This document shows positions 1 through 51,872 of a stretch of DNA of 64,000 bases, in pieces. Source of the stretch: an uncultured Acidimicrobiaceae bacterium (GTDB taxonomy: Bacteria > Actinomycetota > Acidimicrobiia > Acidimicrobiales > RAAP-2); NCBI GenBank assembly GCA_963742445.1, contig CAVULV010000003.1:67504-131503 (forward strand), in the 5' to 3' direction. Every line of letters starts with the position of its first letter. Within the stretch, counting starts at the first letter, position 1. Below the pieces are notes generated by a model. It saw nothing but the letters and a program-made list of their open reading frames with translations. It had not been told where the DNA came from and did not search any database. The position numbers and the translations under genes were made by a program.

Positions 1-1911
1 GAGACCGGCCTGCTCCCCCACGCCAACGCCGGCGCGCTGTTCCCCGAGGAGCTGGCCCGCCTGCGCGAGGTGTCGGCCAGCCAGGGGATGATGCTCGAGT
101 CGCTGGCCGAGGGCCTGGCGGCGCATCGCGGCGCACCCGACAAGGAGCCGGCGCGACGGCTGGCCACGCTCGAGGCCGCCGGCGAGCTCGCCATCCCCTT
201 CACGACGGGGATCCTGGTCGGCATCGGCGACGACCGGGCCGGCCAGCTGGCCGCCCTCCGGGCCATCGCCGCCTCGCACGGCCGGCACGGCCACGTGCAG
301 GAGGTCATCGTCCAGAACTTCCTGCCCAAGCCCGGGACGGCCATGGCCCGCGCCGAGCCGTGCCCGGCCGAGGACCTCGCAATGGGCCATCGTCGGCGGC
401 CCGCCTGGTCCTGCCGCCCGAGATCCACGTGCAGGCGCCCCCCAACCTCTCCGACGAGCTGCGCCCGCTCCTCGACGCCGGGATCGACGACTGGGGCGGC
501 GTGTCGCCGCTCACGGCCGACCACGTGAACCCCGAGCGGGCCTGGCCCGCGCTCGACGTGCTCCGCGAGGCCACCGAGGCGGCCGGCCACACCCTGGCGC
601 CCCGGCTGACCGTGTACCCCTCCTTCGCGCACGACCCCGGACGCTGGCTCGACCCCGCGCTGCGCTTCGCCGTGCTCGACGCCTCCGACGCCGAGGGCCT
701 GGCCCGCGACGACCTCCTGGTGCTCGGGAGGCGAGGCGCCACCGCCGGCGCTGCTCGACCGCAGGCTCCCGGCCGGTGCGGGCCGGGGTGGTGCGGTCGC
801 CGAGGTCCTCGCCGGTGTCGCCCTCGGCCAGGAGGTGGGTCCGGCCGAGATCGTGACCCTCTTCGGCGCCCGGGGCCCCGAGGTGCAGATGGTGGCCGCG
901 GTCGCCGACGAGCTGCGCCGGGCGACGGTGGGTGACGCCGTCACCTACGTGCGCAACCGCAACATCAACTACACGAACGTGTGCACGTTCAAGTGCCGCT
1001 TCTGCGCCTTCTCCAAGGGCCCGCTCTCGCTGAACCTCGCGCGGCGCCCCGTACCTGCTCGAACTGGACGAGGTCACGCGGCGCGTCGCCGAGGCAGAGG
1101 CCGAGGGCGCCACCGAGGTGTGCCTGCAGGGCGGCATCCACCCCGACTTCGACGGCGACTACTACCTGCACGTGCTCGAAGCGGTGCGGGCCGGGTCGGA
1201 GCGCATCCACATCCACGGCTTCACCGCGCTGGAGGTGACGGAGGGGGCACGGCGCTCCGGGGTGCCCCTGGCCGAGTACCTGACGCGCCTCAAGGAGGCC
1301 GGGCTCAAGACGCTCCCCGGCACGGCGGCCGAGATCCTCGACGACGACGTGCGCGCCCTGATCTGCCCGGACAAGATCAACACCGAGGAGTGGCTCGAGG
1401 CGCACCGCACCGCCCACGCGGTGGGCCTGCGCTCGAACATCACCATCATGTTCGGCTCGGTGGAGCAGCCGGTCAGCTGGGCCCGCCACATCGTGCGCAC
1501 CCGGGACCTGCAGCGCGAGACGGGTGGCTTCACCGAGTTCGTCCCGCTGCCCTTCGTGCACATGGCGACGCCGATCTACCTGCAGCGCAAGGCCCGCCGG
1601 GGTCCGACCTTCCGCGAGGCGCTGCTCATGCACGCCGTGGCGCGGATCGCCTACGCGGGGGACATCGACAACATCCAGGTCAGCTGGGTGAAGATGGGCG
1701 CCGAAGGGGCGCGCCAGCTGCTGCGGGCGGGCGCCAACGACCTGGGCGGCACGCTGATGGACGAGAACATCTCGCGGGCCGCCGGGGCGCAGCACGGGCA
1801 GCGCATGGGCGTCGAGGACCTCGAGGCCATCGTGGCCCCCCTGGGACGCCCGCTGGTGCAGCGCTCCACGCTGTACGCGCTGGCCGGGCCGGCGCCTCGT
1901 CGGGCGCGTGA
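1..1911 (+). CDS. fbiC: FO (7,8-didemethyl-8-hydroxy-5-deazariboflavin) synthase, fused CofG/CofH; 5'-partial, frame broken at least 3 times
   Basis: CofG-like 'AIPFTTGILVGIGDD..VQEVIVQNF' (ORF 70-528). Radical-SAM 'CTFKCRFC' (ORF 835-). CofH-like 'CLQGGIHPDF..FTEFVPLPFVH' (ORF 1118-). The pieces lie in three frames, switching near 360, 720-835 and 1040. The 3' end is approximate. Confidence 0.8.
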
Positions 1912-2933
1912 GCGGCGGCGTCGAGGAAGCGGCGCGCCGGAGCGCGTTCGACGCGCTCTTCGAGAACCACTCGCTCTCGCCGGCCCAGGCCCGGGAGCTC
2001 GACGCCATGATCGGGTCGCTGGGCGACATGGCGCGCGAGGGCACCGCCGTCGGCGACCTCAAGATCGCCAATGCGGCGCTGGGCGAGATGGCCGAGGCGT
2101 TCCGCGTCTTCCGCCCCTACCGCCACATCCGCAAGGTCACCATGTTCGGCTCGGCGCGCACGCGGCCGGAGGATCCGGTGTACGTGCTCGCCCGCAACCT
2201 GGCCGCCCGGCTGGCGGCGGCCGACTGGATGGTCGTCACCGGCGCCGGCCCCGGCATCATGGCGGCCGGGCTCGAGGGGGCGGGGCGGGACCACGCCTTC
2301 GGGGTCAACATCCGCCTCCCGCACGAGGAGGAGGCCAACGCCTTCATCGCACAGGACCCCAAGCTGGTCGAGATGCGCTACTTCTTCACGCGCAAGCTGA
2401 TGCTGATCAAGGAGTCCCACGCCTACGCCATCCTGCCGGGCGGCTTCGGCACCCAGGACGAGGCGTTCGAGCTCCTCACGCTGCTGCAGACCGGCAAGGC
2501 CGAGCCCGCGCCGGTGGTGATGATCGAGACGCCCGGCGGCACCTACTGGCACGCCTGGCTCCGCTTCGTCCAGGACGAGGCGATCACGGCGGGCTGGGTC
2601 TCGCCCGAGGACCGCGCCCTCTTCAAGGTGACCAACACGATGGAGGAGGCGAGCGAGGAGATCCTCGGCTTCTACCGCAACTACCACTCGTGCCGCTGGG
2701 TGGGCGACCTGCTGGTGCTGCGGGTGCAGGTGCAGCCGAGCAAGGCGGAGCTGGCCGACCTGAACACGCGCTTCGCCGACATCCTCGTCCGGGGCAGCAT
2801 CCGGACCGCCGCACCCTTCCCGCCCGAGCGCGACGACCATCCCGAGCTCCCCCGGTTGGCGCTGCGCTTCGACCGCTGGCACTACGCCCGCCTGCGCCAG
2901 CTCATCGACGCCGTCAACGAGTGCACGGGGTGA
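1908..2933 (+). CDS. LOG-family (TIGR00730-type) nucleotide 5'-monophosphate nucleosidase with N- and C-terminal extensions
   Basis: Intact 341-aa ORF with '[20 protein letters not shown]' and the '[12 protein letters not shown]' LOG signature. Its stop overlaps the next start (GTGA). Confidence 0.75.
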
Positions 2934-4462
2934 CGCGGGCCGGGCGATGGCCGGCGGCGGTGCTCCCGCTGCTGGCGTTCGCCTCGCTCGGGGTGACCGC
3001 GCCGCCCGCCGGCCGCCGCGCCACCACTCCCCCGCCCGACTCGGTCGTCGCCTTCGGCAGCACCGGCGTCGGTGCGAACGCCGTGCCGGACCCCAACGCG
3101 CCGGTGGTCGGCATGGCGGCGACGCCCGACGGCGGCGGCTACTGGCTCGTCGCCGCGCGACGGCGGCATCTTCAGCTACGGGGACGCCGGCTTCTTCGGG
3201 TCCGTCGGCATCGCTCCGGCTCAACGCGCCGATCGTGGGCCTGGCGGCCACACCCGACGGCGGCGGCTACTGGCTGGTGGCCCGTGACGGCGGCATCTTC
3301 AGCTACGGCGACGCCGGCTTCTTCGGCTCCGCGGGCTCGCTGCCCCTGAACGCACCCATCGTCGGCATGGCGGCGACGCCGGACGGCGGGGGCTACTGGC
3401 TCGTCGCCTCCGACGGCGGCATCTTCAGCTACGGCGACGCCCGGTTCGCCGGCTCCAGCGGCGGCATGGCCCTGAACGCGCCGGTGGTCGGCATGGCGGC
3501 GACCCCCGACGGCGGCGGCTACTGGCTGGTGGCCCGCGACGGCGGCGTCTTCGGCTACGGCGACGCCGGCTTCTCCGGCTCCGCCGGCTCGCTCGCGCTG
3601 GCGGCGCCGATCGTGGGCATGGCGGCCGGCCCCGGGGGCGTCGGGCTACTGGCTGGTGGCCCGGGACGGCGGGATCTTCGGGTACGGGGACGCGCCCTAC
3701 CACGGCTCCCTCGGGGGGACGGCCCTCGGCGGGCCCGCAGTCGGGATGGCGGCGACCCGTGGCGGCGCGGGCTACTGGATCGCCCTGGGTTCGGCGCCCT
3801 TGGCCGGCAAGGTCGTCGGCATCGACCCCGGTCACAACGGGCTGAACTACAGCGCGCCGGGCGTCGTGAACCAGACCGTCTTCAACGGCACGGGGCCCGA
3901 GTCGTGCGACACGACGGGCACCGCCACCGACAGCGGGTACACCGAGGCGCAGTTCAACTTCGACGTGGCGTCCCTGCTCGAGGCCGATCTCGAGGCGGAG
4001 GGGGCGACCGTCGTGCTGACCCGGCCCGACAACGGCGGCGTGGGACCGTGCGTCACCACCCGCGCCGCCATCATCAATGCGTCGCACGCGGACGTGGCCG
4101 TCGACATCCACGCCGACGGGGGGCCGCCCGGCGGGCGCGGCTTCTCGGTGCTCGAGCCGGTGGCCGACGGTCCCAACGACGGCGTCGTCGGCACGTCGGC
4201 CGCGTTCGCGTCCATGCTGCGCGACGCCTTCGTGGCCGGCACCGCCATGCCGGTGAGCACCTACGACGGGGTGGACGGCCTGCAGACCCGGAACGACCTC
4301 GCCGGCCTCAACCTGACCACGGTGCCCAAGGTGCTCATCGAGTGCGGCAACATGCGCAACGCCACCGATGCCGCGCTGCTCGTGACGCCGGCCTTCCAGC
4401 AGGCGGCGGCGGCCGCCATGGCCCAGGCCGTGACCGAGTTCGTGACGGGCCGCCCGGCCTGA
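2930..4462 (+). CDS. Secreted protein: signal peptide, about 5.5 copies of the 'GGGYWLVA(S/R)[15 protein letters not shown]' repeat, and a C-terminal Amidase_3 (N-acetylmuramoyl-L-alanine amidase); about 3 frame breaks
   Basis: N-terminus '[16 protein letters not shown]'. Repeats are in ORFs 1118-3349 (tail), 3072-3287 and 2947-4515. Amidase motifs 'GIDPGHNG', '[11 protein letters not shown]' and 'VAVDIHADG' are in ORF 3656-4462. Confidence 0.75.
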
Positions 4463-4466
4463 CCAG

Positions 4467-5008
4467 TCAGCCCGGGCGGCCGAGGGGCGCCCGCACCAGG
4501 GTCGAGTACACGTGACCCGCCGGCGAGGGTTCCGAGGCCACCAGGTCGACGGCGTCGACGGCGAACGCGCGCCGCGAAGGGGATGCCGGCCAGCTCGGCC
4601 TGGGCCGCGGCGCCCAGGCGGCCCTTGGCCCGGGCCAGCGTCAGGTGGCCGTTGAAGGACGGCTCGCCCTGCTCCGGCTCGGGCACCAGGGCGATCGTGG
4701 CGGCCCGCACCGCCTCGGCCAGGCCGTCGAGCCCGCCGGCGGGGAGCTGGAGCACGCGGACCCCGGTGAACCACCCCGTCGCCGGCCCCAGCCGGCACTC
4801 GAGCGGGCCCGGAAGGCCGGCGGCCGCCGCCGTCAGCGCCCGGCCCAGGGGTGCGAGCAGGTCGTCGGCCACGTCACCGAGGAAGCGCAGCGTGACGTGC
4901 CAGCGGGCCGGGCCGACGAGGCGGAGGTTCTTCGACCGTCCCAGCTCCAGGCCGGCCAGGCGCCGCCCGGGTCGCGTCGTCCGGCCAGGCGGCCACGAAG
5001 GCCCGCAC
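4467..5008 (-). CDS. thpR: RNA 2',3'-cyclic phosphodiesterase / 2'-5' RNA ligase family (2H phosphoesterase); frame breaks near both ends
   Basis: Two HxT/S motifs, 'WHVTLRFLG' and 'GHLTLARA', in ORF 4261-5166. The alternative-frame N-terminus '[14 protein letters not shown]' and C-terminus '[23 protein letters not shown]' fit the family. Confidence 0.7.
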
Positions 5009-5020
5009 CGCGACGCCGGC

Positions 5021-5272
5021 TCAGGCGGCGCCGTCGTCGAGGGGCTCGCGTCCCGCGGCGGTGCCCTCGTGCAGCGCGGCGATGGACCTCTCGAGGGCCC
5101 GGCGGGCCTTGACGATGCGCCGCTCCACGGCGAGGGCCTCCCCGGTCTCCGCCGAGTCCGGGTCACCCGAGGTGGCGCGCCGCAGGGCGTCGATCGCCAT
5201 GTCGGTCAGCTCCTCGACCATCGACTCGAGGCGCTCGGCCAGGTCCTCCATGGCCTCGCTCGGGCCGCTCAC
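5021..5272 (-). CDS. Small acidic helical hypothetical protein (about 76-83 aa)
   Basis: '[25 protein letters not shown]..' sits between the acyl-CoA ligase stop (5269) and the thpR start. A GTG overlaps the upstream stop. No family recognised. Confidence 0.35.
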
Positions 5273-6890
5273 TTGGGCAGCGGCGTGCTCTGCACCTCGT
5301 AGGCGCCGTCGGCGTGGGCGGCCCGCATGACCTTCTTGTCGAACTTGCCCACGCTCGTCTTGGGCACCTCGGTGATGAACGTCCACTGCTCGGGCAGCCA
5401 CCAGCGGGGCACGCGGTCGGTCAGGAACGCGACCAGGTCGGCGGGCGCCGGCGAGCGGCCCGGGCTTCGGCACGACGGCCACCAGCGGGCGCTCGGACCA
5501 CTTCGCGTCGGGGACGGCGATGACGGCCGCCTCGAAGACGTCCGGGTGGGCCATCACGGCGTTCTCGAGCTCGACCGAGGAGATCCACTCCCCGCCGGAC
5601 TTGATGACGTCCTTGGTGCGGTCCGAGATCGTCATGTAGCCCTGGCTGTCGAGGGTGCCGACGTCGCCGGTGCACAGCCAGCCGTCGTGGAACCGCGCCG
5701 GGTCCTCGTCCTTGTAGTACGAGCCGGTGATCCACGGGCCGCGGATCTCGAACTCGCCGACCGACATGCCGTCGTTGGGCAGCACCGTCCCGTCCTCGGC
5801 CACGACGCGGACCTCGACGCCGCCGACGACCCGGCCCGCCTTGACCTTGTAGTACATGTCGTCGTGCCCGTCGTGCTTGCGGGCGGGCGGCAGCCCGAAG
5901 GCGGCCAGCGGGCTGGTCTCGGTCATGCCCCAGCCCTGGATGATGGTGGCACCGAACCGCGTCTCGAACGCCTCGATCAGCGACTGCGGGACGGCGGCCC
6001 CGCCGGCCGTGATGGCGCGGACGCTCGAGAAGTCGATCGGCGTGTCGAGCGCGAGCAGGCCGTTCCAGATGGTCGGCACGCCGCACATGAGCGTCGGGTG
6101 GTGCTCGTTGATGACCGCGGCCAGGTGGTTCCCCATGAGGAACATCTGCGGCATGATCATGTCGGTGCCGGCCATCCACGCCGCCGTAGGGGGTGCCCCA
6201 GGCCATGGCGTGGAACATCGGGACGATGATCAGGATGCGGTCCGACTCCGTCATGCCGACGGAGGAGGCGGCCTGCTCGGCCATGGTGTGCAGCCAGGTC
6301 GAGCGGTGCGAGTACACGACGCCCTTCGGGTTGCCGGTGGTGCCGCTCGTGTAGCACATGGCCGCGGCGGAACGCTCGTCGAGGACGGGCCATTCGAAAC
6401 CGGGCTCCTCGGCGGCCAGCAGCCGCTCGTAGGACAGCGTCTCCCCGAGGGGCGAGGTGTCGCCCTCGCCGGCCACGATGATGGTCTCGACGGTCTTCAG
6501 CTCGTCCTTGACGGCGGCGAGCAGGGGGATCAGCGAGGCGTCCACGATGATGACGCGGTCCTCGGCGTGGTTGATGACGTAGGTCAGCTGGTCGGCGGGG
6601 AGCCGGATGTTGAGCGTGTGCAGGACCGCGCCCATGGAGGGGATGGCGAGGTAGGCCTCGAGGTGACCCTGGTTGTTCCAGGCGAAGGTGCCGACCCGGT
6701 CCCCCGGCTGGACGCCCAGCCGGGTCAGGGCGGCGGCCAGCTTCTCCGCCCTGGTCGCCACCTCGGCGAAGGTGGCCGCCCGGTGCCCGCCCTCCTCGAC
6801 GGTGACGACGGTGCTGTCGCCGTGCACCTGCTGCCCGTGACGGAGGATGTCGCTGATCAGGAGCGGGGCGTCCTGCATGGTGCTTTTCAT
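5269..6890 (-). CDS. Long-chain fatty-acid--CoA ligase (AMP-binding family); 2 frame breaks
   Basis: '[12 protein letters not shown]', 'GWGMTETSP', '[31 protein letters not shown]' and C-terminal '[11 protein letters not shown]' are spread over ORFs 5421-6890, 5021-6175 and a third frame at 5269-5460. Confidence 0.85.
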
Positions 6891-7002
6891 GGCCCAAGTA
6901 TGGCGAGCGCGCCCTTGCTCTGCCCAGCGGCGCAGCGGCCCGACCGTTCCGTGTCATGGAACCGGCGCCGGAACCCGCACCCCCCGCCCCCGGTACGCGG
7001 CG

Positions 7003-7973
7003 ATGAGGGGCGTCGTCGCGGCCGGGCTGGCCGTCGCCCTGGCGGCGGCGCTCGTGGGCACGGCGGTGGCGGCCTCGGCCCTCTCGCTGCTCGGGGTCGG
7101 TGGGGGCCCGCGCCGCCGGCCCCGGGCGGCCGGCGGCGCGGGCGGTCCGATCCCACCGGCCATGCTGGTCCTCTACCAGGACGCCGCGGCGACCTGTCCC
7201 GGCCTGCCGTGGACCGTGCTGGCCGCCATCGGCACCGTCGAGTCGGACAACGGGCGAGTCGACCCTGGCCGGGGTGCACAGCGGGGCCAACCCGGCGGGC
7301 GCGGAGGGACCGATGCAGTTCGAGCCGGCCACCTTCGCCGCCTACGACGAGCCGGTGCCCCCGGGCGGCGCCGACCCGCCCAGCCCCTACGACCCCACCG
7401 ATGCCGTCTACGCGGCGGCCCGTCTCCTGTGCGCCAACGGCGCCTCCGGCGGGGCCGACATCGCGGCGGCCGTGTACGCCTACAACCACTCGGCGTCCTA
7501 CGTGGCCCAGGTCCTCGCGCTGGCGCAGTCGCTGGCGGGTGCCGGGCCCGGCTGCCGCGGCGGGGACGCCGGTCACGGGCGCGGGCACGGTGGCGCTGGC
7601 CTGGGCGCTCGCGCAGATCGGCACGCCCTACGTCTGGGGCGGCGAGAGCCCGGGCGTGGGTTTCGACTGCTCCGGGCTGGTCCAGGCCGCCTACCGGGTG
7701 GCGGGCGTCGCACTGCCCCGGGTGGCCCAGGACCAGTACGACGGCACGCCGAAGCTGGCGCCCGGCCAGCCGCTGGCGCCCGGCGACCTCGTCTTCTTCG
7801 GCACCGGGCCCGGCGCCATCGACCACGTCGGCCTCTACGCCGGCGTCGTCGGCGGCGCAGCCGTCATGGTCGACGCGCCGCACACGGGGGCCGACGTCCG
7901 CGCCGAGGCCTTCCCCGCCACCGTGGGCGCGCCGTTCGGCGGAATGCAGTTCGTCGGGGCGACCAGGCCCTGA
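7003..7973 (+). CDS. Secreted cell-wall hydrolase: SLT-like lytic transglycosylase domain plus C-terminal NlpC/P60 peptidase; 2 frame breaks
   Basis: Signal-like 'MRGVVAAGLAVALAAAL'. 'AIGTVESDNG..GPMQFEPATF' is SLT-like. 'GTPYVWGGESPGVGFDCSGLVQAAY..IDHVGLY' is NlpC/P60. The pieces lie in three frames. Confidence 0.8.
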
Positions 7974-7999
7974 GCGGCATGCCGGGGCTCTGATCATCT

Positions 8000-8585
8000 C
8001 CTGACCGGCGCCGAGCCGGGCTCGGGCGACCGGCGTGAGGAGGTGATCCCAGATCGGCAGTGAGGACACCGCGGCCTCCGGGTAGGTCTCAATTTCGAGA
8101 TAGTTGATCCCGCCGTACGCCGCGCTCAGCTGGTCCTGGATCCCGCTCTGGACTCCGAGGGTGTCGACCTCGAGCAGATGTGCTGCGTAGGCGATGTCTC
8201 GCGGGGAGCATGGCTCCTGGCGCAGGGCCGCCAATGCACCCAGCAGGGCAACCGCAACCGATGCAGACGTGCCCGTGCCGCAACCAGCCGGCACGCCGGA
8301 ACGAACACTGACTTCCACGGCGAGGGATCCCGGGGGCGGGAGGGAGTCGATGGCGGCCTCCAGCAGTGGGTGGCACGCGACGCGGGGAACTCTCGGGACG
8401 ATGGCGTACCGGTCCCCGAAGGTCTCCGCGTCGAGCAGCACTGGATCCGGGCCTCCGGTCGTGCGGATCGACACCTCCACTCCCGGCGTGACGGCGACGT
8501 TCAAGATCCGGCCCGGCCCCCCGAACCAGGTGTCGGTCCACCCGCCGATGTCGCAGATCCGCACGGGCGCCGACGCCTCGATCAT
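8000..8585 (-). pseudogene. GHMP-kinase family gene remnant (N-terminal ~195 aa only)
   Basis: '[21 protein letters not shown]' and the GHMP motif 'VPAGCGTGTSASVAVA'. The C-terminal half is missing and the ORF runs into the convergent hydrolase gene. Locally lower G+C. Confidence 0.55.
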
Positions 8586-8651
8586 CGCCCAGCGCCCCCA
8601 CGAGTGCTCGTCCACGCCACGCCGCGACCTCCGTTCACTGCCATCCACAGT

Positions 8652-8683
8652 CTATCGTAACACGATGCTATCGTAATACGATG
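8652..8683 (+). promoter_or_regulatory. Tandem 16-bp repeat with two palindromic boxes (ATCGTAAYACGAT); candidate MarR operator
   Basis: 'CTATCGTAACACGATG' followed by 'CTATCGTAATACGATG'. Each contains the inverted repeat ATCGT-N3-ACGAT. The second box ends in the marR start codon. Confidence 0.5.
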
Positions 8684-9127
8684 CGATTGCGGGACCACGA
8701 CTACGAGGACCTGCTGACGCTGCGCACGGGACTTCGGCGCCTCCTGCGCTGGAGCGAGCAGCAGGCCGAGGCGGCCGGGCTGACGCCGGCGCAGCACCAG
8801 TTGCTGCTCGCCATCCGGGGGCACCGCGACCGCCGCGGCCCCACCGTGGGCGAGGTGGCCGACTACCTGCTGCTCCGGCACCACAGCGCGGTCGGACTGG
8901 TCGACCGGGCCGACGCGGCTGGGCTGGTGAAGCGGGACCGCGACCCCGAGGACCACCGGGTCGTCCGCCTGCAGCTGACCGCGGCCGGCACCAAGCGGCT
9001 CGAGGCGCTCTCCGAGCTCCACCGCGAGGAGCTCGAGCGGCTCGCCCTCCGGCTCCCCGAGCGCCTGGCGGGGGCTGCTGCCGCGCCAGCCGCTGCACGG
9101 CCTCGAGGGTCGCGCCGTAGGCGCTAG
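8681..9127 (+). CDS. MarR-family transcriptional regulator
   Basis: 148-aa ORF with winged-helix pattern '[54 protein letters not shown]'. Confidence 0.75.
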
Positions 9128-10766
9128 ACGGTCCTCGCCCCGCAACGTCCGGTAGCGGCGCACCAGCGACGCCGTCGACGAGTCCTGGGCCGAGAGGTCG
9201 GGGGCCGACGGCGCGGTCAGGAGCGGCGCCAGCTCCTTCGCCATCACCTTGCCGAGCTCGACGCCCCACTGGTCGAAGGAATCGATGCCCCACACCGTGC
9301 CCTCCACGAACACGGTGTGCTCGTAGAGGGCCACGAGCTGCCCCAGCACCGACGGCGTCAGCTTCGGGGCGAGGATGGTGGAACTGGGCCGGTTGCCCGG
9401 CATGACCTTGTGCGGCACCAGCTCGGGGGGCGTGCCCTCGGCCGCGATCTCCTCGGCCGTCTTGCCGAAGGCCAGGGCCTTGGTCTGCGCCAGGCAGTTG
9501 GCCACGAGGAGGTCGTGCTGCTCCCCCGTCTCGTGGGTGCTCTCGGCGAAGGCGATGAAGTCGGCCGGGACCAGCTTCGTGCCCTGGTGCAGCAGCTGGT
9601 AGAAGGCGTGCTGCCCGTTGGTGCCCGGCTCGCCCCAGAAGATCTCCCCCGTCTGCCCCACCACGGGGGTGCCGTCGAGCCGCACCGACTTGCCGTTCGA
9701 CTCCATCGTCAGCTGCTGCAGGTAGGCCGGGAAGCGGGCCAGCCGGTGGCTGTAGGGCAGCACGGCGTGGGTCTGGGCGCCGAAGAAGTTGTCGTACCAG
9801 ACGTTGAGCATGCCCTGGATGACCGGGAGGTTCTCGGCCAGCGGCGCCGTCCGGAAGTGCTCGTCCACGGCGTAGAAGCCGAAGAGCATCTCGCCGAAGG
9901 CCTGGCGGCCGATGGCCACCATGAGCGAGAACCCGATGGCCGAGTCGTAGGAGTAGCGGCCACCGACCCAGTCCCAGAACTCGAGCATGTTGGCGGGGTC
10001 GATCCCGAACTCGGCCACCGCCGTGGCGTTGGTGGAGACGGCGACGAAGTGCTTGGCCACCGCGTCGTCGCCCGGCCGCCGCACCCAGCCCGCGCAGCAG
10101 CCAGTCCCGGGCCGCCGCCGCGTTGGTCAGCGTCTCGAGCGTCGTGAAGGTCTTCGAGCTCACCACGAACAGCGTCGAGGCCGGATCGAGGTCGTGCGTG
10201 GCGGCGTAGAGGTCGACCGGGTCGACGTTGGAGACGAAACGGCTCACCAGTCCCGGCTGCGCGTAGTCGGCCAGCGCGAGCGTCGCCATGGCCGGCCCGA
10301 GGTCCGACCCGCCGATGCCGATGTTGACCACGGCGTCGATCCGCCGGCCGGTGGCGCCGGTCCACGATCCGTTGCGGATGCGCTCCGAGAGCTCCCCCAT
10401 CTTCGCCAGCACCGCGTGCACGTCGCCGGCGACGTCCTGCCCGTCGACGACGAGCTCGCTGCCGGGCGGCAGGCGCAGGGCCACGTGCAGGACGGCCCGG
10501 TCCTCCGTCGTGTTGATGTGCTCGCCGGAGAACATCGCGTCGCGATGCTCCTCGACCCCCGCCGCCCGGGCGACGTCCATGAGGAGACGCAGGGTCTCGT
10601 CGGTGACCCGGTGCTTGGAGTAGTCGAGGACGAGGTCGGCCCCCTGTGCCGTGAACCGGGCCGCCCGTTCGGGGTCCTCGGCGAAGAGCTCGCGCAGGTG
10701 GCGCTCCGCCATCCGCTCGTAGTGCGCCCCGAGGGCCTGCCACTCCGGTGTCGCCGTCGCGTCCAT
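9122..10766 (-). CDS. pgi: Glucose-6-phosphate isomerase; about 2 frame breaks
   Basis: '[10 protein letters not shown]', '[11 protein letters not shown]', '[12 protein letters not shown]' and '[18 protein letters not shown]' are split between ORFs 8652-11396 and 8582-10084. Confidence 0.9.
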
Positions 10767-10776
10767 GCCCGGCAAT

Positions 10777-11585
10777 CTACGGGTCCGTCCGCGGTGCCGC
10801 GCCCGACGACCAGGAACGAGACGATGGCCGGGAGCGCGGCCGGATCCTGCACGAAGAAGAGGTGCCCGCCGTCGAACATCTCGAGCTGCGCGCGCGGGGA
10901 TGGACGCAGCCAGGAATTCGCTGTTGGCCGGCGGGGCGATGCCGTCGAAGCGGCCGCCGCAGACGAGGGTCGGGCACGCGATCGCCCCGAGGCGGGCGGC
11001 GGTGTCGTGCCGGGCGCGGGCGGCGAGCTGGTTGGCCAAGCCGGGTTCCCGCCGCCCGGTCGAGGCGCGCCCGCTCGGTGGATCATCTCCGCCATGTCGG
11101 GGTGCGCCCGGCGCCAGCCGGCGTCCCAGCGAGAATCGAGGAGCTCCATCTGCCTGATCGCCCGCTCCTCGGGGTCGAGGTCCACCAGCTCGTGCAGCGG
11201 GAAGGAGGCGCCGCCCGCACCGCCGGCCGACGTGCAGGCCAGGACGAGCCGGCGCACCTGCGCGGGATGCCCGATGGCGAGCTCCTGGGCCACCATCCCG
11301 CCGAAGGAGACCCCGAGGACCAGGCAGTCGTCCCAGCCCACCCGCTCGAGGAGCGCCGCGGCGTCGTCGGCGAAGTCGGCCATGGCGTAGGGCCACGGGG
11401 GCGTGCTCGAGCGGCCGAGGCCGCGCTGGTCGTAGGCGAGGACCTCGAACGCTCGGCCGAGCGGGCCGTCGCTCACGCGCAGGCCGTCGCGCAGGTCGCC
11501 GCCGGTGCCGCAGATCACCAGCAGGTGCTCTCCGCTCCCCGACGCTCGTAGTAGAGGGACACGCCGTTGGCGTCGCACCGGGGCA
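10777..11585 (-). CDS. Alpha/beta-hydrolase fold protein; several frame breaks, ends approximate
   Basis: '[14 protein letters not shown]' (GxSxG nucleophile elbow), '[10 protein letters not shown]' and '[16 protein letters not shown]' occur in different frames of ORFs 10244-12499 and 8652-11396. Confidence 0.6.
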
Positions 11586-25293: not shown

Positions 25294-27783
25294 TCAGGAG
25301 CCGGAAGCGGCGATGATCGGCCCGTTCAGGTGGGAGCCCGACATGTCCCCGTCGCTGGGTGCGTCACCGAAGTTCGAGACCTTGCCCAGCGCCGTCACGA
25401 CCCAGTAGCCGCCGCCGTCGGAGGTGTCGAAGATGGCGGACGCCGGATTCAGCCCGCCGGCCGAGCCGGGCGGCAGGCTCCCCATGCCCACCGCATTGCC
25501 GAAGGGGAACACCTGCCCCGCTCCGTCGAGGATCCAGTAACCACCACCGTCGGAGGTGGCGACGGCGGAGGTGATGGCCGAGCTCTGCGGGCCGGGCGCA
25601 CCGTGGTTGGCTGCGTCGCCGAAGGTGTAGACGGCGCCGGAGCTCGTGACCACCCAGTAGCCGTTGCCCGTGGCGTCGGGTACGACGGCCACGGCTGCAC
25701 CACTGCAGCCGCCGATGCCGGGACAGGACCCTTCGAACCTCGCGTCGCCGAAGGCGAAGACACCACCGTCGGAGGCGACCATGAAGTAGCCGTTGCCGTC
25801 GGTGGAGGGCACCATGCCGACGATGGGTGCGTTCAGGCTGTTCGGCAGGCCGGAACCGGCGGGGTGCAGCCCGCTGCCGGGGATGGATCCGTGGAAGCCC
25901 GCGTCGCCGAAGGCGAAGATGCCGCCGTCGGAGGCGACCAGCCAGTAGCCACCCCGGTCCGCCGTGGGGGTGATGCCGACGACGGGCCGTTGGAGATGCA
26001 GCGAGCCGGTGGAGCCGTGGAACGCGGCTGACCCGAAGCTGAAGATGCCGCCGTCGGACCCCACCAGCCAGTACCCGTGCGAGCGCGGTGGCGGCGGGGG
26101 TGGCGGTGGCGGAGGGGGTGGCGGAGGCGGTGGTGGCGGCGGGGCGTTCACCGTCAGGGTGAAGACCTGGGTCGCCGTGGGTGCCACGCCGTTGGACGCG
26201 ACGAGGCACACGGTGAAGGTGCCACCGTCACCGGGCTGTGGCGTCCCCTCGTAGCGATGCGGTCGACCCGCCGGTGTAGACGAGGTGGATGCTGGCCGGA
26301 AGCGCGGAGGGCGTGCACCCGCCGAACGCCGCGTCCGTGACGGAGCTGACGCCGGGCGTCCCGGTCGTGGTGATGTCGAACACACCGGCGTTCCCGGCCG
26401 AGAAGGTGGCCTGGTTGCCGCTCGTGATGGCAGGGGCCGCCGAGGTGCCCGCTCCCGGTGTAGGTGTACTGGTCGGCCGGCGAGATCGCGCTCGTACCGG
26501 CCGGCGTGGTCACCGTGATGTTGACGGTGCCGGGGTTGATGGCGGGCGGGATGGTGGTCGTGATCTGGGTCGAGTTGTAGCTCATGGAGCCGATGCTCAC
26601 GACCGACCCGAAGTCGACGATCGGCGTCACTCCCCCGTCGAAGAAGTTCGTGCCGTGGATCGTCACGCTGCCGCTCGGGATCTCGGGCCCGGACGAGGGC
26701 GACACGGACGTGATCGTGGGGGCGGCCGTCGGGGCGTAGGTGAACTCGTTCACGGCCGGCGTGCCGGTCGCGCTGGACGAGCCGCCCGTGGTGGTGCTGA
26801 CCGTCACGACGACCTGGTCGGTGGCGTTCCCTGCCGGGTCCGCCGGCGCGTCCGCGGTGAGCTCGCCGTTCCAGTTCACGTGCACGTTGGTCGCCGGCAC
26901 GCCCCCGAAGAACACCTGGGGCGTGGGCGACGCGGTGAAGTAGTTGCCCTCGATCGTCACCGGCGTCCCGGCGCCGGTGTTCGGTGACGAAGCCGGGAGG
27001 ACCTGCACGACGTCGGGTGCCGCCGGCGTGGACGGCGTGGGCAGGGAGCCCGGCGTGATCGTGTCGACGAGCGCGTCGGCCGGGTCGACCTGGGTGGCGA
27101 AGATCTGCGTGTACTGGCCGGCCGGCGTGTCGCCGTCCCCCATCATCGCCGTCTGAGTGCCAGTGGTCGTCACGGCGCCGAGGATGTTGGTCCGGTGGCC
27201 CCAGCAGCTCGGGTCGCCGGCGAGGTGCAGTCGAGGTTGGTGCCGCCGTAGCCGTCGTCGTACATCCAGGCGAAGTCCGCCCCGAGCGGGGTGTAGTCCT
27301 GGGCGAAGATCGACCCCCCGGGCCCTGGAAGCCCGCGGGGAGGACTGGGTCCGTGTTCGCCAGCGCACCGGTCAGCGCGGCGGCGTTGAGCGTGGCATCG
27401 AGACCGGAGTACTGGGAGAGACCGCGGTCGCCGCGCTCCTCGTCGGTGAGGATCAGTTGTTGCTCGGGGACCGGGTCGGTGGCGTAGTCGCTCGGCAGGA
27501 CGAGAGGGCCGAGACCCTCGAGTGAGCGCGCGTAGTTGATGTTGTGCAGGATGGAGTCGATGCAGCCGGCGCTGGTGTCGTCGACCGGCGAGAGGGAGCA
27601 CGCGGGCATGACCTGCGGCTGCACGTTGACGGACGGGTCCGATGGCGGGACGATGCCCGAGGCCCCGGCCGCTCGGGCGCGGCGGAGAGGACGACGAGGG
27701 CGGATCCCGATCACGGCCGCGAACGCCACCGCGGCGCGCAGCAGTGTCGAAAAGGCGCGCGCGCCAGGTTGGTGCCGTCTCAC
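25294..27783 (-). CDS. Secreted multidomain protein: CAP/SCP-like region (tentative), 2-3 IPT/TIG domains, Ig-like domain, ~19-residue poly-Pro linker and a six-copy 'GYWLVxSDGGIFxFGDA' repeat domain; at least 3 frame breaks
   Basis: Signal-like 'FSTLLRAAVAFAAVIG'. 'CWGHRTNIL'. IPT-like 'PTITSVSPSSGPEIPSGSVTIHGTNF..QYTYT'. Poly-Pro is encoded at 26086-26142. Six repeats lie in the C-terminal 260 aa of ORF 25294-28017. The GTG start at 27783 is a guess. Confidence 0.7.
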   Translation of the reverse strand: MRRHQPGARAFSTLLRAAVAFAAVIGIRPRRPLRRARAAGASGIVPPSDPSVNVQPQVMPACSLSPVDDTSAGCIDSILHNINYARSLEGLGPLVLPSDYATDPVPEQQLILTDEERGDRGLSQYSGLDATLNAAALTGALANTDPVLPAGFQGPGGRSSPRTTPRSGRTSPGCTTTATAAPTSTAPRRRPELLGPPDQHPRRRDDHWHSDGDDGGRRHAGRPVHADLRHPGRPGRRARRHDHAGLPAHAVHAGGTRRRAGPPGFVTEHRRRDAGDDRGQLLHRVAHAPGVLRGRAGDQRARELERRAHRGRAGGPGRERHRPGRRDGQHHHGRLVQRDRHAGRERVHLRPDGRPHDHVRVALVRARDPERQRDDPRHELLRRGSDADRRLRVGREHRLHELQLDPDHDHHPARHQPRHRQHHGDHAGRYERDLAGRPVHLHRERAPRRPLPSRAATRPPSRPGTPVCSTSPRPGRPASAPSRTRRSAGARPPRFRPASTSSTPAGRPHRYEGTPQPGDGGTFTVCLVASNGVAPTATQVFTLTVNAPPPPPPPPPPPPPPPPPPPRSHGYWLVGSDGGIFSFGSAAFHGSTGSLHLQRPVVGITPTADRGGYWLVASDGGIFAFGDAGFHGSIPGSGLHPAGSGLPNSLNAPIVGMVPSTDGNGYFMVASDGGVFAFGDARFEGSCPGIGGCSGAAVAVVPDATGNGYWVVTSSGAVYTFGDAANHGAPGPQSSAITSAVATSDGGGYWILDGAGQVFPFGNAVGMGSLPPGSAGGLNPASAIFDTSDGGGYWVVTALGKVSNFGDAPSDGDMSGSHLNGPIIAASGS

Positions 27784-28123
27784 GCTTCCGTTCGCCCCCC
27801 TCGTGCGTAGGAATCGACCAGCCCGGGCAACGTAACATTTCGGGCCTCGGCTCGATGGGTCGAGAGGTGGAATTGTCCCCTGGTTGTGGCTGATTTCGAG
27901 CGCGACCCGTCGCTCTCCATTCGATCCCGCGCACTCTCGGGAGTGACGCGTGCAATCATCATTCTCCACCGGGCGAGAAGCAGACCGGATCACGCGAGCC
28001 CGTCGTGACCGCTCCACCGCGATGGGTCGGGCGCCCCGCCAAACGGTGAGCCGCCGTGTCGTGCACGTCGGATCAGATCAGACCGTCGGGACGGCGCGCG
28101 TGGCGGTCTCTACCGGAGGGGAT

Positions 28124-44746: not shown

Positions 44747-47506
44747 ATGAGGCGAGCCCTGATCATTGTGGTGGGTGCGCTGGTCGCAGCCGGACTTCCT
44801 GTCTTCGCTGTTACGGCACATTCGCAACCGGCGGCCGCCGAGACGTCGAGCCCCTACGCGTTGGTCTCGGTGTCCGGGAGCCCCCTCGGTAACGTCAGCG
44901 CAGCCTCCCCCTACGGCTTGAGCCCGGCGTTCTCCCCATCGACCACCGATTACGTTCTCCGCTGCAACGACGGGAGGAACCAGGTTGTGCTCACGCTGAC
45001 CGGGAACGGTGGTCCCGTCTCCGTGGGAACAAATCAGCAGAGCTCGCATGACTCCGGAGCGTCCGTTAACGTGACACTCACCGTGGTCCCGAACCAGGCG
45101 ATTGTGGTGTATGCGCCGAACCCCTCGAACCCCGGGACCACCCCAGACCAGTACTGGATCCGCTGTCTGCCCCCCAATTTCCCCGCGATACAGGTGAACA
45201 AGGCCGGACCCTCGTCCCCCGGCTGGACCCCGGGCTACTACTTCACGGGGACCTTTCCGTTGGGCCAACAACCCTATGCCATGGTGCTCGACGGGAACGG
45301 CATCCCCGTGTGGTTCCAGGGCATCGCGTCGAACCTCGGCGCTGCCTTCAACGTGGAGCCCCTCCCCAACAACACCATTGCCTGGTCGCCCAGTCTCGGC
45401 CCCGGGATTGGTGCGGGGGACAACGGGAATGCGTACACCGGATTCGACCTGGCGACCCAGAGCACCATCGACCCGCTCCCTGCCGCGGTGTCGCCGACAG
45501 ACGAACACGAACTCTGGCCACTGCCCAACGGGGACCGGCTGATGATCTCGTCGCCCGTCGTCTCGAGTGTCGACCTGTCGACCCTCGGGGACGGCATGCT
45601 CTCCTCCGGAAGCACAACTCCTTCGTCTGCGGCGGACGGCAACGCCGTCGACTGCGTGGTGCAGGAGGTGAACCCGGACAACCAGGCCGTCTGGTCCTGG
45701 GACGCCTCGCAACACATCGGGGTCGGCGAGGTCAACACAGTGAGCAATCCCGGCCCTCCCTGGATCCTCGACACCCTGAACGGAAGCCCGGCGGCCGATA
45801 TCTACCACTGCAACTCCGTGTCCATGGACGAGGACACCGCGAGTCCATACCACGGGGACGTCCTGGTCTCCATGCGGCACCTCAACGCTGTCTTCCTCAT
45901 CGACCCGTCCTCGGGCGACGTGATCTGGAAGCTGGGGGGGACACCGCTCACGCCGGGCGATCCCGAGGAGGGACAGGGGTCGCCGGCCCAGTACCTCGCC
46001 ATCACGGGTGACGGCGAGTCCGGTATCTGCGGTCAGCACGACGCGCGGTTCGTCGCGACGCCCGACCCGGCGGTCGAGGACGTGAGCGTGTTCGACGACC
46101 ACTCCAAATGCCTCGGCCCCGCCCGCGGGATTGAGTTCGCCGTGGACACCGCCGCAGGCACCGCCACTCCCGACTACCAGTACGCGCAGCCCCAGGGGCA
46201 ATCAGTGTCGGCCATGGGCAGCTTTCGCCGGATGCCCGACGCCAATAATGACATCGGTTCCGGCAGCAGCCTGACCGACTGGGGCCTCACCAGCGGAACG
46301 AACCTGTCCGGCTTCACCGAAGTCGACAGCGGCGGCAACATCCTGGTCGACGTCACCTTCCCGTCCCTCGAGTACCTGTACCGGGCGATCAAGGTCGATG
46401 CGAGTCAAGTCAATCTGCCCTTGCTCAGGCAGACAGCCGGTTGGACGGGTGCGACGATCCCTCCTCCGCCTTCAATGCCGCAGGTGACGGGCGTGAGCCC
46501 TTCGAGCGGGCTCACGGAAGGTGGGACCTCGGTAACCATCACCGGATCGGGATTCGTCGGCGCCAGCTCCGTGACGTTCGGAGGTCACCAAGCGGCGTTT
46601 GGCGTCACGGCGACAGGCACCATCGTGGCCACCGCCCCTGGGGGCGTGGGAGGCGCCGTCGACGTGGTCGTGACCGCCCCCGGTGGGACGTCTGCGCCGC
46701 GCGCTGCAGACCAGTTCACCTACGCCGACCAGTTCACCTACGTTGCGCCGTCACCACCCGAAATCGTGGGCACGGCCCCCACCCCTGACGGCGGGGGCTA
46801 CTGGCTGGTGGCCTCCGACGGGCGGGTCTTCCCCTTCGGCGACGCCGGGTTCTACGGATCGGCCAGCAATCAGGCGCTCAACGCACCCATCGTCGGGATG
46901 GTGCCCACCCCCAGCGGCAACGGCTACTGGCTGGTGGCCTCCGACGGTGGGATCTTCAACTACGGGGACGCCAGGTTCTTCGGCTCACGCGGCGGTCAGC
47001 CGCTCAACAAGCCGGTGGTCGGGATCGCCGCCTCGACCGACGGTGGGGGCTACTGGCTGGTGGCCTCCGACGGTGGGATCTTCAACTACGGGGACGCCAG
47101 GTTCTTCGGCTCACGCGGCGGTCAGCCGCTCAACAAGCCGGTGGTCGGGATCGCCGCCTCGACCGACGGTGGGGGCTACTGGCTGGTGGCCTCCGACGGT
47201 GGGATCTTCAACTACGGGGACGCCAGGTTCTTCGGCTCACGCGGCGGTCAGCCGCTCAACAAGCCGGTGGTCGGGATCGCCGCCTCGACCGACGGTGGGG
47301 GCTACTGGCTGGTGGCCTCCGACGGTGGGATCTTCAACTACGGGGACGCCAGGTTCTTCGGCTCACGCGGCGGTCAGCCGCTCAACAAGCCGGTGGTCGG
47401 GATCGCCGCCTCGACCGACGGTGGGGGCTACTGGCTGGTGGCCTCCGACGGTGGGATCTTCAACTACGGCAGTTCCGACTTCGAGGGGTCGGTCATGGGC
47501 GGCTGA
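44747..47506 (+). CDS. Secreted protein: arylsulfotransferase (ASST)-like beta-propeller region, one IPT/TIG domain and six '[24 protein letters not shown]' repeats
   Basis: Intact ORF. Signal peptide 'MRRALIIVVGALVAAGLPVFAVTAHS'. ASST-like 'DIYHCNSVSMD..GDVLVSMRHLNAVFLIDPSSGDVIWKLGG..GQHDARF'. IPT 'VTGVSPSSGLTEGGTSVTITGSGF'. Repeats at the C-terminus. Confidence 0.75.
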   Translation: MRRALIIVVGALVAAGLPVFAVTAHSQPAAAETSSPYALVSVSGSPLGNVSAASPYGLSPAFSPSTTDYVLRCNDGRNQVVLTLTGNGGPVSVGTNQQSSHDSGASVNVTLTVVPNQAIVVYAPNPSNPGTTPDQYWIRCLPPNFPAIQVNKAGPSSPGWTPGYYFTGTFPLGQQPYAMVLDGNGIPVWFQGIASNLGAAFNVEPLPNNTIAWSPSLGPGIGAGDNGNAYTGFDLATQSTIDPLPAAVSPTDEHELWPLPNGDRLMISSPVVSSVDLSTLGDGMLSSGSTTPSSAADGNAVDCVVQEVNPDNQAVWSWDASQHIGVGEVNTVSNPGPPWILDTLNGSPAADIYHCNSVSMDEDTASPYHGDVLVSMRHLNAVFLIDPSSGDVIWKLGGTPLTPGDPEEGQGSPAQYLAITGDGESGICGQHDARFVATPDPAVEDVSVFDDHSKCLGPARGIEFAVDTAAGTATPDYQYAQPQGQSVSAMGSFRRMPDANNDIGSGSSLTDWGLTSGTNLSGFTEVDSGGNILVDVTFPSLEYLYRAIKVDASQVNLPLLRQTAGWTGATIPPPPSMPQVTGVSPSSGLTEGGTSVTITGSGFVGASSVTFGGHQAAFGVTATGTIVATAPGGVGGAVDVVVTAPGGTSAPRAADQFTYADQFTYVAPSPPEIVGTAPTPDGGGYWLVASDGRVFPFGDAGFYGSASNQALNAPIVGMVPTPSGNGYWLVASDGGIFNYGDARFFGSRGGQPLNKPVVGIAASTDGGGYWLVASDGGIFNYGDARFFGSRGGQPLNKPVVGIAASTDGGGYWLVASDGGIFNYGDARFFGSRGGQPLNKPVVGIAASTDGGGYWLVASDGGIFNYGDARFFGSRGGQPLNKPVVGIAASTDGGGYWLVASDGGIFNYGSSDFEGSVMGG
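46922..47469 (+). repeat. 126-bp in-frame tandem repeat, about 4.3 nucleotide-identical copies (42 aa each)
   Basis: The unit 'GGCTACTGGCTGGTGGCCTCCGACGGTGGGATCTTCAACTACGG..' starts at 46922, 47048, 47174, 47300 and 47426. I saw no differences between units. Confidence 0.9.
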
Positions 47507-49619: not shown

Positions 49620-49922
49620 GGATCTGCCGTCCTGGCGCCTATCCCCGTACGAATCAGGCACTTTCGGGCTATCAGTCTCCGATGAGGTTATTGGCGCACC
49701 GTTCCGTCCCCTCTCGTCCCACAGCTCTTTCAGCTCAGTGGGTTCGCGAGGATCTGATAGGAACCCGAACTGGTTGACAGAGCAGGTAGGCTTTGTCGAC
49801 GCCTCATCCTCCTCTTGGTCGGCGACTTCAACCTCGAAGATGGCAGCATCGAGGACCGCGACCGCAGTGTGAGCGGCATCGCATTGTGTGTGCAGCATCT
49901 CGATCTTCTTCGCCGCGTTCAC
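49503..49922 (-). CDS. Hypothetical acidic protein; the 3' part overlaps 49377-49619 and is probably not all coding
   Basis: 'MNAAKKIEMLHTQCDAAHTAVAVLDAAIFEVEVADQEEDE..'. The GTG start lies directly beside the CTGACAG repeat array. Confidence 0.3.
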   Translation of the reverse strand: MNAAKKIEMLHTQCDAAHTAVAVLDAAIFEVEVADQEEDEASTKPTCSVNQFGFLSDPREPTELKELWDERGRNGAPITSSETDSPKVPDSYGDRRQDGRSLATDAAKLPHAGQSLGVVGASPHAEPPVTSRREPPARP

Positions 49923-49990
49923 TGACAGCGTTCACTGACAGCCACTGACAGAGCCACTGACAGACCTGTCAGACCTGTCAGACCTGTCAG
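49920..49990. repeat. Inverted iteron array: 4 x CACTGACAG followed by 3 x ACCTGTCAG
   Basis: CACTGACAG at 49920, 49933, 49943 and 49955. ACCTGTCAG at 49964, 49973 and 49982 (contiguous). CTGACAG and CTGTCAG are reverse complements. Confidence 0.85.
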
Positions 49991-49995
49991 ACCGT

Positions 49996-51794: not shown

Positions 51795-51872
51795 TGGTCG
51801 GGCTGCCGGGATTTGAACCCGGGACCTCTTGACCCCCAGTCAAGCGCGCTAACCAAGCTGCGCCACAGCCCG
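51795..51872 (-). tRNA. tRNA-Pro (anticodon GGG), CCA encoded
   Basis: Reverse complement: CGGGCTG-TG-GCGC-AGCTTGGTTA-GCGC-G-CTTGA-CTGGGGG-TCAAG-AGGTC-CCGGG-TTCAAAT-CCCGG-CAGCCCG-A-CCA. This gives a full cloverleaf with anticodon loop C-U-GGG-G-G. Confidence 0.9.

Follow-up and report, generated by a model that had tools for sequence, protein, structure and literature searches.

A predicted six-bladed β-propeller built of 42-residue repeats and joined to an Ami1-type amidase in an uncultured Acidimicrobiaceae bacterium: a candidate cell-wall-binding module

What does an array of short tandem repeats do in front of a peptidoglycan amidase? The question is raised by a gene on the forward strand of contig CAVULV010000003.1 from an uncultured Acidimicrobiaceae bacterium, at positions 2930-4462 of a 64,000-nt stretch, here called the window, in whose coordinates all positions are given. 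The 509-residue conceptual product of this gene, obtained by skipping one base at each of three sites, comprises in order a probable signal peptide, a short β-strand (residues 38-43), five full repeats, a half repeat and an Amidase_3 catalytic domain. A sequence-only reading of the window had proposed that the repeats are blades of a portable propeller, with a cell-wall or glycan ligand as a guess. Here we describe the repeat, its predicted fold, its partners in cellular and phage proteins, and the quality of the assembly in which it was found. On balance, we regard it as probable that the repeats form a six-bladed propeller that binds the cell wall non-covalently and, in this protein, targets an Ami1-type amidase.

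The 42-residue repeat is real and lies where the sequence-only reading had placed it, with about 5.5 copies of 40-42 residues ahead of the amidase. By Tandem Repeats Finder (TRF), 3095-3693 has a 126-nt (42-residue) period with 4.7 copies at 82% matches and a score of 740, and five full repeats plus a half repeat are delimited at 3092-3781 (+) by TRF, a single-repeat hidden Markov model (HMM) and a consensus over 256 blades, which opens with nAP and ends with.DGGiF.yGdA.f.GS.G.l.L. Matches of the HMM in all six frames of the window are limited to 3092-3781 (+), 25336-26079 (-) and 46748-47500 (+), with E-values per repeat mostly between 1e-12 and 1e-25 and weaker values for pieces cut short at frame breaks. 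The second and third of these blocks belong to the two further proteins (genes 2 and 3, below) for which about six copies each had been claimed, and the repeat count, with the split blade included, is six in all three proteins.

The fold was predicted for two versions of the module by AlphaFold2 (AF2). The module of gene 2, modelled with 25 homologous modules aligned, gave a predicted local distance difference test (pLDDT) score of 90.6 and a predicted template modelling (pTM) score of 0.87; the model is all-β, with six sets of three strands followed by a final lone strand. The conceptual amidase protein, modelled with 55 orthologues, reached a pLDDT of 80-95 over residues 38-285, and its N-terminal strand (residues 38-43) and C-terminal half repeat were both modelled confidently, as expected for a shared sixth blade. 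The N-terminal strand, SVVAFG (3041-3058, +; pLDDT ∼83), resembles the third strand of the repeat and is kept as SVVPFG in orthologues. In the model this strand (E38-43) complements strands E269-274 and E280-285 of the C-terminal half-blade, and is predicted to complete the last propeller blade in a velcro-type closure. Foldseek searches of the PDB and of viral models returned only β-propellers (probability 1.00), with template modelling (TM) scores of 0.5-0.67 and identities of 8-17%, so that the predicted fold class is clear, without a close solved relative. The structure prediction and Foldseek comparison that the sequence-only reading had suggested as a check thus gave confident all-β models for both versions of the module and propeller matches only.

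The number of blades is suggested by repeat counts. Six full repeats are present in 91 of 147 family representatives, 11-12 in 17 and 18 in one, and the amidase orthologues have five full repeats and one split. From these counts and the complementary terminal half-blades we infer a closed six-bladed ring, as had been proposed from the periodicity of the repeat. Taking the fold alone, the models make a six-bladed propeller very probable.

The repeat appears to be absent from the named families. Scans of the three window proteins and 26 module sequences against Pfam (2025 copy) and NCBIfam (release 20) gave no model that reaches its cut-off on the repeat region. The repeat had been judged not to be Kelch, NHL, RCC1, WD40, FG-GAP or any other named Pfam repeat; this was borne out by the 26 modules, on which no WD40, Kelch, NHL, FG-GAP, PQQ or TolB-type model came above cut-off (Reg_prop and VID27 gave single sub-threshold matches), and the proposed HMM search with the repeat found no confident match to a characterized repeat family. 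Nor did these scans match the module to LysM, SH3b, PG_binding_1, SLH, CWB2, CW_binding_1, LGFP or SPOR; the one PG_binding_1 domain seen belongs to a homologue in which it is a partner separate from the module. Short sub-threshold Pfam matches to SH3_YKFC_2nd, DUF5818, F420H2_quin_red, Ribosomal_L24e and RCC1_2 recur and were treated as spurious. Matches to NHL, Kelch, FG-GAP and RCC1 are present in only 1-3 of the 61 or 66 family proteins scanned, and those to RCC1 lie in a separate N-terminal region, outside the module.

A single module sequence gave no match among PDB sequences, and the only matches of the family profile were marginal, a WD40 protein and the HERC2 RCC1-like domain being tied at E ∼0.007. 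The repeat is not described in the literature searched for propeller wall-binding domains in actinobacteria or endolysins. A survey of 2004 reportedly includes 42-residue repeats under the different names RIVW and LVIVD; RIVW was not specifically compared with the module, and LVIVD, which we take to be a Pfam family, had no match to the module in the Pfam scan. In JGI (Joint Genome Institute) records, several module proteins (e.g. P0019, P0064 and P0085) are named 'ribosomal protein L24E', a name that arises from the sub-threshold Pfam matches to the repeat hairpin (Ribosomal_L24e, F420H2_quin_red, SH3_YKFC_2nd and DUF5818).

One candidate for a known parentage is the RCC1/BLIP-II superfamily, in which the repeat would be a shortened and divergent member. 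The hairpin motifs are similar (G-aromatic-x-L-x-A-x-DG-x-[IV]-[FY]-x-[FWY]-G here, H-x-L-A-L-x-x-x-G-x-V-x-x-W-G in RCC1), BLIP-II blades have three strands and about 40 residues, and marginal sequence matches exist, to RCC1_2 below threshold in two of the 26 modules and to HERC2 at E 0.0076. However, the WD40 protein scores equally in the same PDB profile search, no Pfam RCC1 model (PF00415/PF13540) reaches its cut-off (17.2 bits against 22 for RCC1_2), and RCC1/BLIP-II propellers have seven blades rather than the six predicted here. The module was also compared with the genuine RCC1 repeats of P0151 and P0154, two proteins that carry both repeat types: these repeats are ∼52 residues long against 42, and hhalign gave a non-significant profile-profile match, 12% over 12 columns for single repeats and <1% for whole domains. 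RCC1 membership is not supported by this comparison, and a place for the repeat in that superfamily seems quite unlikely.

The catalytic half of the protein (3815-4435, +) is an Amidase_3 domain of the Ami1/Rv3717 type, as assigned by Pfam, PDB and Foldseek matches. It matches PF01520 at 1.4e-29 (103.7 bits against a cut-off of 27) over profile positions 1-173 of 174, and the motifs DPGH, GYTE, IHADGG and ECGNM are all present. M. smegmatis Ami1 has the same residues in the alignment at the His of DPGH, a Glu, the His of IHADGG and the Glu of ECGNM, none of which varies among 56 orthologues; these four positions are presumably the zinc-binding and catalytic residues of the Amidase_3 family. 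The best PDB sequence matches are 7agm (2.7e-47) and 4m6g (2.5e-43), and the modelled domain superimposes on Ami1/Rv3717 structures with Foldseek TMt values of 0.82-0.88. The NCBIfam model NF038140 ('Rv3717 family') is matched at 1.4e-60, with 204.6 bits against a cut-off of 335; by this sequence criterion the amidase is a relative of the narrowly defined Rv3717 group and not one of its members. At the other end of the protein, a probable Sec signal peptide (2930-3010, +) was recognized by eye from a basic N-region followed by a hydrophobic core; residues 1-30 have a pLDDT below 50. The architecture of signal peptide, repeats and Amidase_3 domain claimed for this protein thus stands for the repeats and the amidase, and is probable for the signal peptide.

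The mycobacterial enzymes Ami1 and Rv3717 (4LQ6, 4M6G, 7AGM) share the DPGH, E, IHADGG and ECGNM signature and are ∼40% identical to the catalytic domain. Rv3717 has been described without a wall-binding domain and with autoregulation through an N-terminal hairpin (PMC3852659), whereas the protein described here has a predicted N-terminal propeller of ∼250 residues. Ami1 is required for cell separation in M. smegmatis (PMC5430687).

The module is widespread and travels with many partners. A profile search of 1.84 billion cluster representatives (clusters at 50% identity) had 21,274 protein matches with E ≤ 1e-3, of which 11,653 reach E ≤ 1e-30. The named sources are Acidimicrobiales/Acidimicrobiia and 'Actinomycetota' metagenome-assembled genomes (MAGs) and Actinoplanes/Paractinoplanes; an example from the last is P0088, an M23 peptidase of Paractinoplanes lichenicola with the module. 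Among the 120 best short cellular matches, 41 have a recognizable partner domain: NlpC/P60 in 12, CAP in seven, CHAP and 3D in three each, Amidase_3, GH43, TIG and Calx-beta in two each, and M23, YkuD, PG_binding_1 and a few immunoglobulin (Ig)-like or other domains as single cases. In 23 of these 41 proteins, those with NlpC/P60, CHAP, 3D, Amidase_3, M23, YkuD or PG_binding_1, the partner acts on or binds peptidoglycan. In 127 larger representatives, the partners include Ig-like arrays (TIG, fn3, PKD, He_PIG, Big_9 and cadherin-like domains) as well as S8/S53 peptidases, CHAP, NlpC/P60, Amidase_3/6, SpoIID, CAP, cutinase, RHS and other propellers. Of 147 representatives, 95 have the module no more than 30 residues from the C-terminus, 36 have it near the N-terminus and 16 internally; in larger proteins the C-terminal module follows Ig-like arrays, proteases, SpoIID, cutinase and similar domains. 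The survey of domain partners that had been suggested thus agrees with the claim of a portable module, with dozens of different partners and a place at either end of the protein.

This range of partners is the one known from CWB2, SLH and other wall-anchoring modules. Likewise, the non-covalently anchoring CWB2 (C. difficile Cwp6), SLH, LysM, SH3b, choline-binding and LGFP (Corynebacteriales) repeats of Gram-positive bacteria are portable units found on amidases, NlpC/P60 and CHAP peptidases, L,D-transpeptidases, CAP domains, proteases, adhesin-like arrays and phage endolysins, and Cwp6, which combines Amidase_3 with CWB2, is among the Foldseek matches of the amidase half. The module described here differs from all of these in that it has no sequence relation to them, with no match to their Pfam families, and a predicted propeller fold unlike theirs, and its wall binding is putative.

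Phages provide a further clue to the ligand. In IMG/VR, 68 viral loci carry the module, mostly in proteins of 220-330 residues with two or three C-terminal repeats. In all twelve carriers scanned for domains, Amidase_2, a PHROG endolysin or both are matched, and only in the N-terminal part, and by BLASTP 53 of the 68 carriers share such an endolysin N-terminal domain, with the repeats C-terminal to it (loci L085-L149, e.g. L088:4596-5387 and L130:4455-5222). In phages of Gram-positive hosts, the part of an endolysin that follows the catalytic domain is the wall-binding domain. The repeats, being C-terminal to the catalytic domain, thus occupy the wall-binding slot, which strengthens the earlier guess of a cell-wall ligand, still as a conjecture. 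One of the endolysin-type genes sits between tail-fibre genes, near a virion structural gene.

The 53 endolysins have two repeats in 25 cases, three in 24, six in two and one in two. Since two, three and six all divide six, the short forms may assemble six-bladed rings, which suggests trimers of the two-blade forms and dimers of the three-blade forms. A similar arrangement is known from the lectins RSL of Ralstonia and BambL of Burkholderia, six-bladed propellers that are trimers with two blades per chain. They resemble the phage forms in their near-identical blades and in the small number of blades per chain, but no sequence similarity to the module was tested for or seen, and oligomerization of the phage forms is conjectural.

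Outside the endolysins, one GenBank phage was found by translated search to encode the module, GX15bay from mangrove soil (MK557849.1), in a 1304-residue protein whose gene adjoins that of a minor tail protein. The GenBank label of this protein, 'glycoside hydrolase family 25', was not reproduced by Pfam and was set aside; PHROGs give a weak tail-protein match. Large viral carriers of 1000-1300 residues without a Pfam match are L082:3672-6803, L083:3960-7025 and L150:2639-6550, the last being the GX15bay protein; those of L082 and L083 have 12 repeats each, two propellers' worth. Together with the classical wall-anchoring repeats, the receptor-binding propeller of gp45 from S. aureus phage phi11 (5EFV) is the nearest analogue in function. 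It is likewise a phage propeller that recognizes a Gram-positive wall glycopolymer, and the module described here also occurs in tail-region proteins. The phi11 propeller is five-bladed and has a putative N-acetylglucosamine (GlcNAc) cavity (PMC6115969). It differs from the module in having five blades instead of six and no detected sequence similarity, and the phage module is mainly a C-terminal part of endolysins.

A further property of the module is the equivalence of its blades. In the amidase orthologues (n=56), blades of one protein are about as alike (76% identity) as are blades at one position when orthologues are compared (77%). Over the 256 blades, conservation is ≥90% at more than 20 of the 42 positions, and in one further orthologue four to five blades are identical. 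The blades either share one strong constraint or undergo repeated homogenization. Either reading would suit six equivalent sites on a repetitive ligand.

Putting these observations together, we propose that the propeller would be a self-contained extracellular module, with three predicted strands in each blade, that binds a repetitive wall polymer, either the glycan strands of peptidoglycan or a wall-linked polysaccharide. Binding would be multivalent through the six near-identical blades and involve no covalent link, so as to keep secreted enzymes on the wall. In the protein described here, where a signal peptide precedes the propeller and an N-acetylmuramoyl-L-alanine amidase of Ami1/Rv3717 type follows it, the propeller would bring the enzyme to its substrate. 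The other two exported proteins of the window would be anchored by the same module, and in phages it would replace the usual C-terminal wall-binding domain of endolysins. Wall binding, the nature of the ligand, multivalency and ring closure are all conjectural parts of this proposal. Several points weigh against it. β-Propellers very often mediate protein-protein contacts, and the strong conservation of some positions may reflect structure and nothing else. Apart from wall enzymes there are many other partners (arylsulfotransferase, GH43, S8/S53 proteases, RHS and Ig-like arrays), which fit general surface retention and a generic interaction module equally. One phage module protein is a large tail-region protein and no endolysin. 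Finally, true pseudogenization of the amidase copy is compatible with its sequence taken by itself (see below).

Two other functions for the propeller deserve consideration. It could be a platform for protein-protein interaction or regulation, docking hydrolases on a divisome or envelope protein or keeping them inactive until a partner binds. The Foldseek neighbours of the module are WD40-type scaffolds, Amidase_3 enzymes are often controlled by partners (AmiB-EnvC and LytH-ActH are among the fold matches), and the hairpin autoregulation reported for Rv3717 points the same way. Yet the partner domains are far too diverse for a single protein partner, six near-identical blades point to a ligand of repetitive structure more than to a single protein interface, and phage endolysins, which act late and outside host regulation, carry the module where wall-binding domains sit. 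We therefore consider this unlikely. The module could also resemble a lectin or carbohydrate-binding module (CBM) directed at polymers outside the bacterium's own wall, bringing degradative enzymes to plant, fungal or microbial polysaccharides in soil. Symmetric propellers of near-identical blades are a common lectin design, and GH43, cutinase, arylsulfotransferase, S8/S53 peptidases and spherulin-like domains among the partners would suit such a role. However, peptidoglycan hydrolases are the largest recognizable partner class in short proteins, an Ami1 orthologue of housekeeping type carries the module in at least 120 clusters, and phage endolysins carry it too; Ami1, the other hydrolases and endolysins all act on the bacterial wall. 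An external ligand is thus distinctly unlikely, and binding to the wall remains the function that we favour.

The conceptual amidase protein depends on the correction of its reading frame. The sequence-only reading had presented 2930-4462 as one protein and had silently repaired the frames; the region is not a single open reading frame (ORF), and its uncorrected frame-2 translation from 2930 contains two stop codons. Alignment of the window DNA with three orthologues places one extra base at each of three sites on the forward strand, at about 3151-3157 (frame 2 to 3), 3202-3210 (frame 3 to 1) and 3624-3646 (frame 1 to 2). The coding segments are 2930-3154 in frame 2, 3156-3209 in frame 3, 3211-3639 in frame 1 and 3641-4462 in frame 2. 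The GTG start at 2930 and the stop codon of the LOG-family gene upstream share a 4-nt overlap (GTGA), and the same overlap and gene order are found at L001, the syntenic locus in a related MAG (ERZ25039468 contig_39272). In protein database searches, the best orthologue, P0272, is 90% identical across 100% of the conceptual protein, and orthologues of 500-520 residues form at least 120 clusters. Among 13 full-length orthologous loci, 12 have an uninterrupted frame over propeller and amidase, including three from short-read assemblies (L010, L011 and L022).

Frame breaks are not confined to this gene. When the proteins of L001 are mapped onto the window, FbiC switches through frames 1, 3, 1 and 2, an AMP-binding enzyme through frames -3, -1 and -2, and an NlpC/P60 gene through frames 2 and 3, while the segments between breaks are still 80-93% identical to the L001 proteins. 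A plot of G+C content by codon position along the window shows the same pattern of frame switches, and conserved genes of the window have approximately one indel per kilobase. Breaks in conserved genes were seen in window 1-11000 and 26100-27800. In a scan that took one genome from each species, 'uncultured Acidimicrobiaceae' MAGs of the Microflora Danica project came closest (76-81% identity); MAGs of this project are Nanopore-sequenced (PMC12313526). In L001, the orthologue of the amidase gene (P0108, L001:6001-7525) is also split, into products of 380 and 81 residues; the break lies inside the amidase domain, away from the three sites in the window, and by this difference in position the indels of the two assemblies are independent.

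Because the breaks affect unrelated conserved genes, the orthologues are intact and the nearest relatives are Nanopore MAGs, there is a good probability that the breaks are indel errors of a long-read metagenome assembly and not features of the living gene, and the conceptual 509-residue protein is treated as the real gene product. Programmed frameshifting was dropped as an explanation, since the breaks hit unrelated genes and are absent from orthologues. If instead the three extra bases were biological, the amidase copy would be a true pseudogene in a decaying locus. Three breaks within 500 nt, the in-frame stops of a straight reading and the broken orthologue in the related MAG, damaged elsewhere, would agree with this. 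Breaks at about one per kilobase in FbiC, the AMP-binding enzyme, the NlpC/P60 gene and gene 2, the 80-93% amino-acid identity to orthologues with no further damage between them, and the Nanopore origin of the close relatives argue against it and make decay highly improbable. For the record as deposited, annotation based on ORFs would split, truncate or miss many genes.

The NlpC/P60 peptidase gene (7472-7970, +) lies 3 kb downstream of the amidase gene, has no propeller, is frame-broken and occupies the same position in L001. Further along, at 8652-8684, two tandem 16-nt copies of CTATCGTAA(C/T)ACGATG are located at the start of a match to a MarR-family regulator (8651-9061), of which the pair may be the operator.

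The other two module proteins of the window have different N-terminal domains, as the sequence-only reading had stated. Gene 2 (25294-27783, -) encodes an N-terminal domain, two TIG domains, a poly-proline linker of ∼21 Pro (26085-26146, -; TRF and translation) and the six-repeat module (25336-26079, -), which ends with the lone closing strand LNGPIIAAS. Before the module is reached, the reading frame of the gene is broken at least three times; the repeat block itself is intact. Its N-terminal domain (27087-27660, -) has no Pfam match, either here or in the intact homologue P0189 that shares it; a GHRxNIL motif resembling CAP/YkwD was noticed by eye and is unconfirmed, CAP being a frequent partner of the module elsewhere. 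Gene 3 (44747-47506, +) is intact and encodes 919 residues: a signal peptide (by eye), an arylsulfotransferase-like domain (Arylsulfotran_2, 3.6e-16), a TIG domain (2.6e-13) and the six-repeat module (46748-47500, +; TRF and HMM). Blades 3-5 of this module (46997-47374) are 100% identical in DNA and the flanking blades differ by 19-20 nt, with the total staying at six; the identical blades reflect either recent intragenic homogenization or an artefact of repeat assembly. At 49920-49995, four direct repeats of CACTGACAG and, directly after them, four of the inverse motif CTGTCAGAC form a convergent, iteron-like array. The stretch around the array is poorly coding, and a tRNA-Pro(GGG) gene (51795-51872, -) lies ∼1.8 kb away.

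Pfam and NCBIfam do not see the family to which the repeat belongs, although it comprises more than 21,000 clusters at 50% identity. Thousands of Acidimicrobiia proteins are in consequence called hypothetical, annotated wrongly or named only after another domain that they carry. Should the module be a wall anchor, the surface proteome of a dominant, mostly uncultured group of soil bacteria could be recognized by it. The module would also account for the targeting of an Ami1-type division amidase where the mycobacterial arrangement is lacking. It would also offer a new binding domain for endolysin engineering, with a built-in test of oligomeric ring assembly. A broader proposal, which we put forward tentatively and would not yet call probable, is that the repeat defines a large unnamed family of wall-binding propellers that is the main non-covalent surface anchor of Acidimicrobiia and some other Actinomycetota, from which phages have borrowed two- and three-blade forms that rebuild the six-bladed ring as trimers and dimers, respectively. 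If true, the wall-binding domains of endolysins would include a structural class that is new, and there would be a handle on the wall chemistry of an abundant and largely uncultured soil lineage.

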